DNA of 64,000 bases from Syntrophales bacterium (GTDB lineage: Bacteria; Desulfobacterota; Syntrophia; Syntrophales; UBA2210): the NCBI GenBank assembly GCA_963666365.2, contig CAXXNF010000001.1, forward strand, positions 1,312,001 to 1,376,000, in the 5' to 3' direction. This document shows positions 21,439 through 27,793 of the stretch, one piece after another. The notes under the pieces are model-generated. The model was not told where the DNA came from. It searched no databases and saw nothing but the letters and a program-made list of their open reading frames with translations. Made by a program: the position numbers and the translations under genes. Position 1 is the first letter of the stretch, and the number at the start of each line of letters is the position of its first letter.

Positions 21439-22986
21439 ATGATTAAGACGGTTGAACAGTATCTTGAAAGCTTGAACGATGGAAGAGAGATCTGGTGTCT
21501 GGGAGAAAAGGTGTCCGATGTGAGGACACACCCGACGCTGAGTAGTATTATCCGGACGGCGTCGATGGACTATGTGCTTCCGAATCACCCCGATTTCAGA
21601 GATCTTTTCGTTACGAAAGACGAAGAGGGTGAGGATATCAATTTTCTCCTTACCTCGCCCAGGTCGTCGGAAGATCTTCTGCGACGGAGAGAATGTTATA
21701 TTAACGGCGTTCGCGCTGGCGGCGGCGTCATGGTTCACTGCATGGGCGCCGACGCGCTTGCCGCCTTCGCCGTGGCCGCGCAAGTCATGGATAAAGCGTT
21801 GGGGACAGGCTACAGTGAGCGCGTCGCGCACTATCAAAAACACCTGCAGAAAAACGATCTTGCCATTACCGGCGCCATTACCGATGTGAAGGGCGATCGG
21901 AGCCTGCATCCGTCTCAACAGAAACAGCATCAGGATTATTATCTGCGTATTGTGGATCGGCAGAAAGAAGGGATCGTCGTCCGTGGGGCCAAGGTCCATA
22001 TCAGTTCGACCCCCTGCGCAAATGAAGTGCTGTGCCTGCCCTGCCGTACCCACGGCGAGGCCGACAAGGACTATGCCCTTGCCTTTGCCACGCCCGTCAA
22101 TGCCCCGGGAATCAAGCTTCTGGCCGTGGAACCCGTATCGCGCACTTACGGGGAAGAAGGGGAGTTCGATTACCCTTCGACAAGCAAGAAACAGCCCACA
22201 GAGTGCCTGATCATTTTCGATGACGTCTTCGTTCCCTGGGAACGGGTATTCATGTGCGGTGAATGGCAGTATTCAAGAAATCTGGCCTATGCCTTCGCCA
22301 GCTACCATCGCCTTTTCGGCACCTGCAAGATGATCGGCAAGCTCGAAATAATCACCGGAGCGGCGGGCCTTATGGCTGAATACAATGGTGTGGAACAGGT
22401 AAGCCATGTCCGTAAAAAACTGGCATGGATGGCCATGATCACCGAATCGGTGGCCCTACTGGGGAAATCAGCCTGTCTCGATCCGGTGACCGAATTCGGA
22501 ATGGATACCGTGATGCCCAACCGGATGGCCATAAACTCGGCGAAATTCACCTTTGCGAGCAACTTCCACCAGATGTGCCAGAATCTGCAGGATATCGCCG
22601 GCGGTCTCGCCGCGACGGTTCCCACCTTCCGGGACTGGAGCAATCCCGACATACGGCCCTATATCGAAAAGTATTTAAGTGCGAAGGACGGCGTTTCAAC
22701 GGAAGACAGGATTCGGGCCGTCCGCCTTGCCAAGGACATGACCTGTAACTTCTATCAGATTGACACCATCCACGGCGAGGGTTCCATGGCCGCCCAGGAG
22801 ATGTTCCTCTACGGCAGTGCCGACTGGAACAAGCTTAAATCGGCGGCGAAACGTGTGGCGCACATCGACGGCTGGCAGAATGATCCCATCTACGGGAAGC
22901 TTCCGCTCCAGAAAGATCATGTCGATCCCAAAATGCCCGCTGTTGAAGAATCCTATGCGAGCATACCGGTAACGGCGAAGGGATAA
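21439..22986 (+). CDS. 4-hydroxybutyryl-CoA dehydratase / HpaB family flavoprotein (paralogue 2, atypical motifs)
   Basis: Full-length, highly similar paralogue of 19798-21339; AAGGAG RBS. Confidence 0.88.
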   Translation: MIKTVEQYLESLNDGREIWCLGEKVSDVRTHPTLSSIIRTASMDYVLPNHPDFRDLFVTKDEEGEDINFLLTSPRSSEDLLRRRECYINGVRAGGGVMVHCMGADALAAFAVAAQVMDKALGTGYSERVAHYQKHLQKNDLAITGAITDVKGDRSLHPSQQKQHQDYYLRIVDRQKEGIVVRGAKVHISSTPCANEVLCLPCRTHGEADKDYALAFATPVNAPGIKLLAVEPVSRTYGEEGEFDYPSTSKKQPTECLIIFDDVFVPWERVFMCGEWQYSRNLAYAFASYHRLFGTCKMIGKLEIITGAAGLMAEYNGVEQVSHVRKKLAWMAMITESVALLGKSACLDPVTEFGMDTVMPNRMAINSAKFTFASNFHQMCQNLQDIAGGLAATVPTFRDWSNPDIRPYIEKYLSAKDGVSTEDRIRAVRLAKDMTCNFYQIDTIHGEGSMAAQEMFLYGSADWNKLKSAAKRVAHIDGWQNDPIYGKLPLQKDHVDPKMPAVEESYASIPVTAKG

Positions 22987-22997
22987 TCTATCAACAA

Positions 22998-23029
22998 CAT
23001 ACCCGGGAGCAGGCGATCTCCCGGGTATG
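22998..23029. terminator. Hairpin between convergent genes
   Basis: CATACCCGGGAG-N8-CTCCCGGGTATG perfect 12 bp stem. Confidence 0.55.
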
Positions 23030-23044
23030 AGTTTCCGACAATCC

Positions 23045-23791
23045 TTACGCCACCAGCGCTGCTGCGATTGTTTCACGGGTCCGCTTCATCAACTCATCCA
23101 GGCCGCCTTCTTTGTAGTCTGCGACATCGATGGGTTGGTGAATGATCATGGTTGCCCGTCCCGGGAACAGATCGATTGTTCCCGGCGGAAGGATTTTGCG
23201 GGTGCCGATGATCGTAACGGGAAGAATGGGGATCCCGAGGTCGAGGGCCATGGTGAAGGCGCCCCGTTTGAAGGTTTTGAGCTTGCCGTCCCGGCTTCGG
23301 GTTCCCTCGGGAAAAAAGATCACCGAGGTACCGTTGACTATCCTGTCTTTTGCGGCCTTGATTGTCGCAAGAGCCGCGGCCCCGTCGGACCGGTCGATAA
23401 ATATATGGCCGATCTTTTCGCACCCAATGCCCAGGCCCGGTATTTTTCTCAATTCCTTTTTTAACACCCACCTGAAATCTACTCCAAGCCAGCCGTAAAG
23501 AACAAAAATATCATACTGACTCTGATGATTGCTCACAATTACATAGGACTGGTTTCTGTCTAGATGCTCTCTTCCTTTTACGGTGACCCGCATGGGCGTC
23601 ATATATCCATTTAGTCTCGCCCACACAGCCCCGCCGATAAAACTGGCAATCCGCGGATTGGTCAGAAAGACCAGGCAGACCGTAAGGCCGCCGAAAAAGA
23701 GGGTGGAAATGATAAGCCAGGGGGCAAAAATGAGCCATTTGTAAGGCTGGTAGAGTATGTAGAGCGCTTTATTCATTCGGGTAGGTTCCAT
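23045..23791 (-). CDS. 1-acyl-sn-glycerol-3-phosphate acyltransferase (PlsC family)
   Basis: NHQSQYD, FIDR and FPEGTRS. The ATG overlaps the TGA of the upstream YeeE-family gene. Confidence 0.92.
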   Translation of the reverse strand: MEPTRMNKALYILYQPYKWLIFAPWLIISTLFFGGLTVCLVFLTNPRIASFIGGAVWARLNGYMTPMRVTVKGREHLDRNQSYVIVSNHQSQYDIFVLYGWLGVDFRWVLKKELRKIPGLGIGCEKIGHIFIDRSDGAAALATIKAAKDRIVNGTSVIFFPEGTRSRDGKLKTFKRGAFTMALDLGIPILPVTIIGTRKILPPGTIDLFPGRATMIIHQPIDVADYKEGGLDELMKRTRETIAAALVA

Positions 23792-24318
23792 CAAATTCGG
23801 TGTTTCTTTTCGAAAAGATAAAAAAGCAGAAGATAGATCACCGTCACTATTGCTATGACAATCCAGTGGTTAAGGCCCAGCACATCCGGAAGGGTGATTT
23901 TCCCGTAGTTTCCCCATGTCAGTATAGACGATTTAACGGCCGGGTAGACTTCCGCGTAAATGGCGGCGCCGACGATCATGCCAATAAGAGCGAACAGCGC
24001 ATCCCATCTGCCTTCCCCCAGGGCGCCGGCGGCGGTGCCGGGGCAGTATCCCACAAGGGCCCAGCCGATGCCGAAAATGATGCCGCCTATTATATTTGCT
24101 CCCAGTGAGGTGCCTTTGACACTCAAGGTCACCATACCGAGATCCTTCAATAAATAGATACCGATCATTGCCACGATAATGGTGGATAACATGAATTTCA
24201 CGATCGTAAAATCGATCAACCGCATTGCGCCGAGCTGCTTGTCGTAACGAATGACCTCGGCCTTTTGCATGAGAAATCCGAAAAGTATACCCGTCACAAG
24301 GCCGTATATAAGTTCCAT
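23791..24318 (-). CDS. YeeE/YedE family sulfur-transport membrane protein (second half-protein)
   Basis: Highly hydrophobic; GILFGF and IFGIGWALVGYCPGT motifs. Confidence 0.9.
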   Translation of the reverse strand: MELIYGLVTGILFGFLMQKAEVIRYDKQLGAMRLIDFTIVKFMLSTIIVAMIGIYLLKDLGMVTLSVKGTSLGANIIGGIIFGIGWALVGYCPGTAAGALGEGRWDALFALIGMIVGAAIYAEVYPAVKSSILTWGNYGKITLPDVLGLNHWIVIAIVTVIYLLLFYLFEKKHRI

Positions 24319-24322
24319 GGTG

Positions 24323-24841
24323 CTATTCCCCCCTTCCGTAGACTATACGCGCCGTGATGATGCCGCCGATAAAAAAGCATATCAACGAAACGAACCCGCT
24401 TACCGACATCTGAGCAAGACCGCTCAGTCCGTGTCCGCTCGGTCACCCCCCGGCCATGCGTGCACCGAAGAGCGCGACAATCCCCCCTGCGAAGGCGACC
24501 AGGTAACGCTTCCCCGCACTGTCGCCGAAGCGCCGCCGCCACATAGGAGGAACAGGGGTGGATGCAAAGGTTCCCGCAATTTTCGATGCCGCCAACGAAC
24601 CGACTATAATGCCGGCAACGAAGAGCATCTGCCAGTCAATCTTGATTTTCGTTTTGGTAAAGTAGTCCGAATTGGCTACATATTCCGTAGCCACCGTTTT
24701 TTCAATCAGCCCCGCAGAACGGACGAATGTGGTGGATGCGCCGAAATACTTGCCTGCGATGAGCACGGAAAGGCACAGCACCAGTCCCGCCAGGGCGCCC
24801 GCCCAATAGGGTGACCAGGTGGTTCTTTGAAAAAAGTTCAT
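24323..24841 (-). CDS. YeeE/YedE family membrane protein, probable selenoprotein (TGA=Sec at 24443-24445)
   Basis: The frame reads ...GARMAGG-TGA-PSGHGLSGLAQMSVSGFVSLICFFIGGIITARIVYGRGE-TAG. The family motif is GARxAGGCxSGH, and readthrough ends just before the next gene. Confidence 0.85.
24403..24442 (-). promoter_or_regulatory. Candidate bacterial SECIS element
   Basis: After the UGA: CCGAGCGGACACGGA-CUGAGC-GGUCUU-GCUCAG-AUGUCGG. 6 bp upper stem, G-first apical loop about 21 nt downstream, GACA/UGUC lower stem. Confidence 0.65.
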
Positions 24842-25002
24842 AGCATTCTCCTTCCGTCTGACCGTTTAAACAACTTTAAACAAAGACGGAGGAAATGGCA
24901 ATAGATCTTTGTATGATCATTGGAGTTCGTAATTATTTGACATCTTGATGCAAGTAATGGTTTAAAGTAGAAAATCACTCTATTAATAAAAAAGGAAGAG
25001 AC

Positions 25003-27028: not shown

Positions 27029-27793
27029 CTGTTTGACCATCCCATTGCGGGCAGTGTTTTTATCAACGATGCCACGATAATGTTTGATGACGTATTTATT
27101 CCACATGAGAGGATCTTTCTGAAAGGGGAGTGGGAATTTGCCGGGCAGGTGGCCCACATGTTCGCCAATTTCCACCGCTTGAGTGCGGAGACCTACAAGG
27201 CCATGGAACTGGAACTCTTTACGGGCGCCGCCGTTCTGATGGCTGAATACAACGGCATAGAGAAGGTAAGCCACGTGCGGGAAAAATTGACCTGGCTCGC
27301 CATGTATACGGAAGCCGTGGAAATTCTCGGACGGGCAGCTTCCGAGAATTGCATCAGCGAAACGGATTCCGACCTTGTCTATCCCAATCCCATGTATGCC
27401 AATATCTGCAAATTTTTCTTTGCCGACAACTGGCACCAGGCAACCAAGTTCATTCAGGATATTGCGGGAGGTATTGTCGCCACCTGTCCGTCACCGAGAG
27501 ATTACTTCAATCCGGAAATTCATGGTCTGCTTGACAAATATCTGGGAGGGCGCGCCGGAGTTCCCACAGAGAACCGGCTTCGTATGGCCAAGCTGATACG
27601 GAATCTCACGTCGTCCTATGAGGATGTCCTTACCATCCATGCAGAAGGGTCGCTTGAAGCCCAGAAGCTCTCCATTTTTGTGCGGGCCGATTTTGAGCGG
27701 TATAAGGCCGCGGCACGCAGGGCCGCCCGCATCGGGGATGAAAAAGTACATGCTATCTTTAAGGAGCTGCCGGAGTTTCCCCCGAAGCTGTAA
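27029..27793 (+). pseudogene. 5'-truncated 4-hydroxybutyryl-CoA dehydratase/HpaB-family gene (C-terminal half only)
   Basis: LFDHP...FDDVFIPHERIF...ANFHRL...IHAEGS matches only the C-terminal half. In-frame stop upstream at 26948-26950; no N-terminal domain and no RBS. Confidence 0.78.

Follow-up and report, generated by a model that had tools for sequence, protein, structure and literature searches.

Does the in-frame UGA of a small YeeE/YedE-family gene in a Syntrophales bacterium end the protein, or is it translated as selenocysteine (Sec)? The gene, hereafter gene A, is located on the minus strand at 24323..24841 of the window (the whole stretch of 64,000 nucleotides that was analysed), and is followed by a second gene of the same family, hereafter gene B. 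From the comparison of sequences, it is very probable that gene A is a selenoprotein gene and that UGA 24445..24443 is decoded as Sec. For the locus as a whole, the best explanation, and a likely one, is that the Sec-containing product of gene A is paired with the product of gene B, together forming a split YeeE channel with Sec at the capture site. The evidence for each of these steps, and the alternatives at each step, are described below.

Reading frame and product of gene A

Gene A starts from ATG 24841 on the minus strand, and its sense codons extend over 24841..24326 up to TAG 24325..24323. Under translation table 11, the gene ends at TGA 24445..24443, after ...FGARMAGG, leaving a product of 132 amino acids. 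When this TGA (codon 133, minus strand 24443..24445, in the context GARMAGG-U-PSGHG) is read, 39 further residues (PSGHGLSGLAQMSVSGFVSLICFFIGGIITARIVYGRGE) are added before the TAG, giving a total of 172 amino acids. A preliminary description of this DNA had claimed that the frame runs past the TGA to a TAG just before the next YeeE gene, and this was borne out, the frame being 172 codons long and gene B starting 4 nt past the TAG.

The translation with the TGA read matches Pfam PF04143 (Sulf_transp) with 87.4 bits (cut-off 27) over profile positions 173-310, corresponding to the C-terminal half of the family, and the match extends to residue 162, past the UGA. Gene A was classified as PmpA-like (C-terminal-half type), and four hydrophobic segments were recognized in its product by a rough Kyte-Doolittle scan. 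A promoter-like site 5' of gene A (24873..24901, minus strand) agrees with the consensus hexamers at 9 of 12 positions, a weak consensus match only; it is by itself no evidence, since the scan yielded four such sites vs 2.6 expected.

Gene callers cut gene A at codon 132, and a collection of 5.8 billion proteins contains only 132-aa fragments ending in ...GG for the gene A product and likewise for two close relatives, of 93% and 80% identity; among the top 120 matches in the same collection, 108 are full-length and carry the CPS form. Given these fragments, a complete transporter subunit is probably mislabelled in the annotation of the present genome as well as in dozens of Syntrophales/Desulfobacterota genomes.

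TGA and Cys codons at one column of the homologues

The own genome and 60 relatives were searched in six frames with gene A, and matches were obtained in 30 genomes. Among the places listed in other genomes, one in-frame TGA was present in 16 of 37. Upon alignment of 29 fetched loci, the TGA (15 loci) fell at the same column as Cys in the 13 Cys-type loci that cover it. A further 80 named loci were obtained when one genome was scanned for each species, making a total of 110, among which L031 is the same as L059, L072 the same as L073, and L053 almost the same as L054. Homologues with Cys or TGA at this column, on which the preliminary description had proposed to check the claim, are thus abundant on both sides: the codon is TGA in 41 of the 110 loci and Cys in 66 (TGC in 38 and TGT in 28), the remaining three being unread. 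Counted as distinct downstream segments, these correspond to 39 TGA and 65 Cys sequences. The 39 residues past the TGA are conserved as well as those before it, and PSGHGLSG...ARI(L)YG is found in both TGA and Cys forms.

A sequencing error had been named in the preliminary description as a finding that could overturn the claim; a contig of run X4, which comes from a different study and carries a different organism label, covers 23860..24670 with no differences. The X5 sediment contig, 95% identical, carries 58 other letters over 53 places across the stretch, and among the 40 of these 53 places that were listed, none is located in the codon or in the hairpin described below. Runs X1 and X3 are identical to the stretch and may be its source. 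The 19 runs listed included no RNA run.

The genome (4.0 Mb, two contigs) was also expected to carry selA, selB, selC and selD, and all four Sec components were identified above curated cut-offs. The tRNA-Sec scored 76.3 bits and was called SeC(tca) by ARAGORN, and selB and selA scored 361.5 and 608 bits, respectively. The selD gene (TIGR00476, 382.8 bits) is located at C1:483557-484486 with one in-frame TGA within the match, and selenophosphate synthetase, its product, is probably a selenoprotein as well.

A bSECIS-type hairpin downstream of the UGA

The hairpin CUGAGC-GGUCUU-GCUCAG, noticed already in the preliminary description, is present on the minus strand at 24410..24427, and consists of the stem strand CUGAGC (24427..24422), the loop GGUCUU (24421..24416) and the stem strand GCUCAG (24415..24410). 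The distance from the UGA is 15 nt to the stem and 21 nt to the loop. The bSECIS constraints given in a recent catalogue are a loop of 3-9 nt, a stem of at least 4 bp, G in the first two loop positions, a UGA-to-loop distance of 16-37 nt and an energy of -7.5 kcal/mol or lower (PMC13188914). The gene A hairpin stays within all of these limits, with a stem of 6-7 bp, a loop of GGUCUU or GUCU, a distance of 21-22 nt and an energy of -8.4 kcal/mol for the hairpin folded alone.

The support for this hairpin comes from comparison and not from the fold of a single sequence, because the 66-nt fold of the single sequence gave a non-significant z of -0.57 in a dinucleotide-shuffle test. In a set of 16 TGA sequences, the six pairs of the hairpin form in 85% of cells, and the pairing falls to 16-48% in the control in which the 3' partner columns are slid by 1-3; in the same set, two compensatory pairs, C-G to U-A and A-U to G-C, were found. 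Another weak fold (-5.9 kcal/mol) was proposed by RNAalifold on these 16 sequences, and was set aside in view of this level of pairing in the named hairpin.

When nt 13-45 after the codon were folded by RNAfold, the mean energy was -10.7 kcal/mol for TGA (39 distinct sequences) vs -7.5 kcal/mol for Cys (65 distinct sequences), and 36 of the 39 TGA sequences reached -7.5 kcal/mol or lower. Within the clade of at least 50% identity, the means were -11.0 kcal/mol for TGA (n=36) vs -7.1 kcal/mol for Cys (n=15). The Mann-Whitney p values for these TGA vs Cys energies, 1e-6 and 8.5e-5, are overstated because the homologues are kin. A strict model of an unbulged hairpin is passed by 17 of the 39 TGA and 8 of the 65 Cys sequences; the hairpin is bulged in many of the TGA homologues, and the case for a SECIS element therefore rests on the RNAfold energies together with the comparison.

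The form of the hairpin varies among the homologues. A second TGA group, which encodes GLSGSLQ instead of GLSGLAQ, carries the bulged hairpin CUGAGCG/CGCUUCAG, and the TGA paralogue L039 (43% identical) carries a shifted hairpin, GGGGUC/GACCCU. Two loci with TGC at the codon, L032 (L033 of the same genus code has TGA) and L058, are Cys-type and yet keep the SECIS-like hairpin intact (CUGAGCGGUUCGCUCCAG; CUGAGC-GGCCUG-GCUCAG), which looks like recent replacement of Sec by Cys with the hairpin not yet decayed. An Rfam scan of 24000..25000 with E up to 10 gave three chance miRNA/snoRNA matches only, the library being without a bacterial SECIS family for gene A.

Decoding of the UGA

That the TGA might be a private nonsense mutation in a pseudogene, or an error of sequencing or assembly, has nothing in its favour but the stop codon itself. 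This explanation was rejected, and its probability is close to nil: 40 other loci, belonging to many genera, share TGA at this column, the frame and the partner gene are intact, and the codon is the same in the independent X4 contig and, among the differing places listed, unchanged in X5. Sec insertion in bacteria is not known to be fully efficient, and the 132-aa product is the one recorded by gene callers and in the large protein collection; these points would suit read-through of the UGA without Sec, by near-cognate Trp or Cys, or a reading in which the truncated and the full-length proteins are both made and the truncated one is functional. Such readings are nevertheless very improbable, as the genome holds the complete Sec machinery, the hairpin accompanies TGA and fades in the Cys forms, the downstream 39 residues including the last transmembrane helix are conserved, and a 132-aa product would be without the pore motif PSGHG. 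The preferred reading is that SelB and tRNA-Sec decode UGA 24445..24443 as Sec under the direction of the hairpin 24427..24410, by which gene A would produce a 172-aa membrane protein with four helices.

Distribution of the Sec and Cys forms

When 107 A-halves were placed in a quick maximum-likelihood tree, with the trait column made uniform and the three unread rows omitted, at least five changes between Sec and Cys were required, four of them forced by well-supported branches, and a mean of 33 changes was obtained after shuffling of the trait labels. Most Sec forms are located in one clade of 55 rows (38 Sec and 17 Cys), consisting mostly of Thermodesulfobacteriota (Syntrophales, Desulfobacterales, Desulfobulbales and Desulfuromonadales) with single rows labelled Nitrospirota and Chloroflexota. 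The TGA form is also carried by cultured relatives, for example at the loci of Syntrophorhabdus aromaticivorans (L077) and Hydrosulfovibrio ferrireducens (L074). Within the family code of the window itself, the gene A query gave a match in 14 of 36 genomes, and with the same query a genome of the same genus gave a Cys form only, 32% identical.

TGA is also present at the same column in distant paralogue groups with UTSGHG or UPLGHG (L088, L089, L039 and G005:C1:68937-69425; 41-46% identity). These distant TGA paralogues carry different hairpins, which are weak in L088 (-5.1 kcal/mol) and L089 (-5.2 kcal/mol). More than one gain of Sec within this family is probable.

Apart from these, nearly identical Sec-type loci were found in bins of different phyla, L053 in an Anaerolineales record and L054 in a Desulfobacteraceae record, which could be due to mis-binning or to very recent transfer.

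Gene B and the PlsC-like gene

Gene B (23791..24318, minus strand; ATG 24318) encodes a 175-aa YeeE/YedE partner of the PmpB-like (N-terminal-half) type with the motif GYCPGT, and its purine-rich, Shine-Dalgarno-like sequence GGAAGGGGGG is located within the read-through tail of gene A. The product matches PF04143 with 73 bits (cut-off 27) over profile positions 18-154, corresponding to the N-terminal half, as well as DUF6691, and five hydrophobic segments were recognized by a rough hydropathy scan. The Cys of GYCPGT is Cys92 (TGC, 24043..24045, minus strand).

A Cys-type half with GYCPGT had been claimed as the partner of gene A, and the arrangement of the homologues agrees with this: gene B is located 3' of gene A in 109 of the 110 loci, and in the single exception the sequence stops 146 nt past A. 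The pore residue of the B-half is Cys in 102 of the 109 and unread in the other seven, with TGA in none. All 41 Sec-type A genes are accompanied by a Cys-type B.

The stop codon of gene B overlaps, as TGATG, the start of a PlsC-like acyltransferase gene (23045..23794, minus strand; start at TTG 23794 or ATG 23791; PF01553, 116.9 bits; TIGR00530). Translational coupling with PlsC had been proposed; the overlap is real, but the arrangement is not conserved, because among the 95 of 110 loci with at least 940 nt after A, a downstream PlsC homologue is found in the own locus only. L084 carries a weak PlsC homologue upstream on the opposite strand. The PlsC-like gene was therefore rejected as a part of the conserved module, and an overlap present in one genome only says little about function. 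Directly 3' of the PlsC-like gene, a terminator-like hairpin with a 12-bp stem and a poor T tail was detected by a consensus scan at 22998..23029 (minus strand). Together with the promoter-like site 5' of gene A, likewise no more than a consensus match, it flanks A, B and the PlsC-like gene, which are here in one operon.

In another part of the window, an ORF of 237 aa on the plus strand (27080-27793) matches only the C-terminal HpaB domain (PF03241, 179 bits) without HpaB_N, and an in-frame stop is located about 130 nt upstream; its paralogue at 21439-22986 is full-length with both domains. The ORF may be a gene fragment or one part of a split gene.

A probable split channel with Sec at the capture site

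In a phmmer search against solved structures, residues 23-170 of the gene A product aligned with residues 198-330 of Spirochaeta thermophila YeeE (6LEO/8J4C; E 8e-6, a weak match), with Sec133 on Cys293 and Arg41 (codon 24719..24721, minus strand) on Arg215. Arg41 is retained in the homologue translations listed with the alignment of the 29 loci. Residues 5-165 of the gene B product aligned with residues 4-177 of the same protein (E 7e-9, also weak), with Cys92 on Cys91 and Ile23 on Cys22. The preliminary description had taken gene A for a Sec-containing YeeE/YedE half-protein with UGA in place of a functional Cys, and the alternation of TGA and Cys at one column, together with the position of Sec133 on Cys293, speaks for that assignment.

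In S. thermophila YeeE, Cys293 and Arg215 are reported to bind thiosulfate in a periplasmic indentation, and Cys293, Cys91 and Cys22 are placed along a constriction of 15 Å in steps of about 7 Å; the C91A and C293A mutants are inactive, and C22A is active (PMC7449682). The short proteins PmpA and PmpB correspond to the C- and the N-terminal half of YeeE, respectively, and contain a single Cys apiece, the equivalents of Cys293 and Cys91; a PmpA/PmpB heterodimer was proposed by the authors (PMC11582611). YedE1E2 of Cupriavidus pinatubonensis is described to import zero-valent sulfur, and Cys-to-Ser replacement in either half abolishes the import (PMC10812762).

On the basis of these alignments and of the gene order, it is highly likely that the products of genes A and B form one two-piece channel. 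The 172-aa product of gene A and the co-translated 175-aa product of gene B would assemble, as a putative heterodimer, into a channel of the PmpA/PmpB (YedE1E2) type. Judged from their counterparts in the fused YeeE, Sec133 and Arg41 of A would constitute the outward-facing capture site, and Cys92 of B, corresponding to Cys91 of YeeE, would be the next station inward. Inorganic sulfur, as sulfane/zero-valent sulfur or as thiosulfate, would be the most likely substrate, which would be handed from Sec to Cys and then freed into the cytoplasm, the presumed direction of transport.

The natural exchange of Sec and Cys marks the residue equivalent to Cys293 as chemically active. A selenol is deprotonated at physiological pH, and Sec at this position should therefore be unable to donate the S-H...S hydrogen bond that was proposed for Cys293 of YeeE. 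As a speculative and rather doubtful extension, the repeated Sec/Cys exchange at one site might mean that covalent chalcogen chemistry underlies the working of split YeeE channels, and that the Sec forms are high-affinity scavengers of sulfane sulfur (or selenium). An Se-S adduct would then arise by attack of Sec on polysulfide, sulfane sulfur or thiosulfate and be handed on to the partner Cys92, and the Sec forms would serve to scavenge scarce sulfane sulfur (or selenium) in sulfidic anoxic habitats. If this were true, the model of a passive hydrogen-bond relay would have to be revised for the whole family.

Genomic context and the nature of the substrate

In a Pfam analysis of 111 ORFs from 16 Sec-type loci, no recurrent neighbour was identified beyond A and B, and in particular none of TusA/YeeD, rhodanese, persulfide dioxygenase and ArsR recurs beside these 16 pairs. 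Scattered redox and metal genes are located near the Sec-type pairs of the same loci. Since a recurrent neighbour of sulfur metabolism is lacking, the context supports no particular substrate.

Two of the 16 loci (L071, 2709-3890; L081, 254-1441) have a gene of the Porin_O_P family (phosphate-selective porin) directly 5' of the Sec-type pair, too few for an association.

The genome holds three YeeE-family systems. Besides the Sec-type pair on contig C1, which includes the window, contig C2 carries a Cys-type split pair (C2:1831436-1832607) and, about 9 kb from it, a full-length YedE (TIGR04112, 496.6 bits), which adjoins the sole TusA-family gene of the genome (C2:1821761-1823045 for the two; the only PF01206 match is at C2:1821761-1821967).

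Sulfur is somewhat favoured over selenium as the substrate of the A and B pair, by analogy with the related channels. The opposite proposal is that the pair handles selenium, and that selenide, selenite or selenotrisulfide passes through a channel or relay lined with Sec to supply selenoprotein synthesis. The superfamily does contain YedE/FdhT, which is tied to selenium metabolism by its NCBIfam names and in the literature (PMC9312934, PMC11582611), and the Sec-type forms are concentrated in anaerobes with many selenoproteins, among them Syntrophales and Desulfobacterales. The proposal is nonetheless improbable, because the scores of both halves with the YedE models NF033796 and TIGR04112 are far too low, and no selD, selA or YedF-like gene is recurrent beside the 16 Sec-type pairs; a role of the Sec pair in selenium uptake is further weakened by the separate full-length YedE, already present elsewhere in this genome beside its only TusA-family gene.

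Comparison with known systems

YedE/FdhT (TIGR04112, NF033796) belongs to the same superfamily and shares the link to selenium biology, but is full length and is not itself a selenoprotein. The A and B halves scored 29 and 34.9 bits with NF033796, for which the cut-off is 350, and 38.6 bits was the score with TIGR04112, for which it is 200.

TsuA/YeeE (S. thermophila 6LEO, 6LEP and 8J4C; E. coli; partner YeeD/TsuB) is homologous in fold as judged by sequence, and its Arg215, Cys293 and Cys91 correspond to Arg41, Sec133 and B-Cys92. In TsuA, nine helices and three Cys belong to a single polypeptide of about 330-350 aa, whereas here two chains are predicted and the Cys22 position is Ile; in addition, the present locus has no adjacent TusA-like YeeD/TsuB gene. 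With the NCBIfam models for TsuA, the scores were far too low, at 36 bits for NF041049 (cut-off 645) and 50 bits for NF052577 (cut-off 400).

PmpA/PmpB of Serratia sp. ATCC 39006 and YedE1/YedE2 of C. pinatubonensis are likewise encoded by adjacent half-size genes in the order of C-half and then N-half, with one conserved pore residue per half, the equivalents of Cys293 and Cys91. The pair described here differs in having Sec as the Cys293-equivalent and strict anaerobes as hosts, and in the absence of ArsR, persulfide dioxygenase and rhodanese genes from the neighbourhood. The PmpA/PmpB halves are of about 130 aa and those of the present pair, with 172 and 175 aa, are about 40 longer, the type being assigned by the matching of halves and by the pore residues.

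The suspicion that Sec-type YeeE had already been annotated proved correct. YeeE/YedE is catalogued as a predicted selenoprotein family (PMC13188914, PMC9312934), the 2026 catalogue giving the motif GUxSG with one Sec (PMC13188914), and both catalogues cite Zhang and Gladyshev 2008 and Peng et al. 2016 for this family. Neither 'YeeE' nor 'YedE' occurs in the main texts of PMC2398784 and PMC5029168 (Peng et al. 2016); the family is found in the supplement of the latter, where file 4 contains the entry 'YeeE/YedE family, 5 organisms, 5 selenoproteins'. A full-text literature search for YeeE together with selenocysteine found no functional study of the Sec form.

Gene A resembles the catalogued family in the same Pfam assignment, in the single Sec, in G-U-P-S-G, which fits GUxSG, and in the anaerobic, selenoprotein-rich hosts, but the catalogue entry gives no partner, structural position of Sec or function. 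The Sec form of the YeeE/YedE family is already known, and with respect to the catalogue gene A adds a member, an incremental gain. The structural reading, in which a split channel would carry Sec in the capture position of Cys293, is useful but again incremental.
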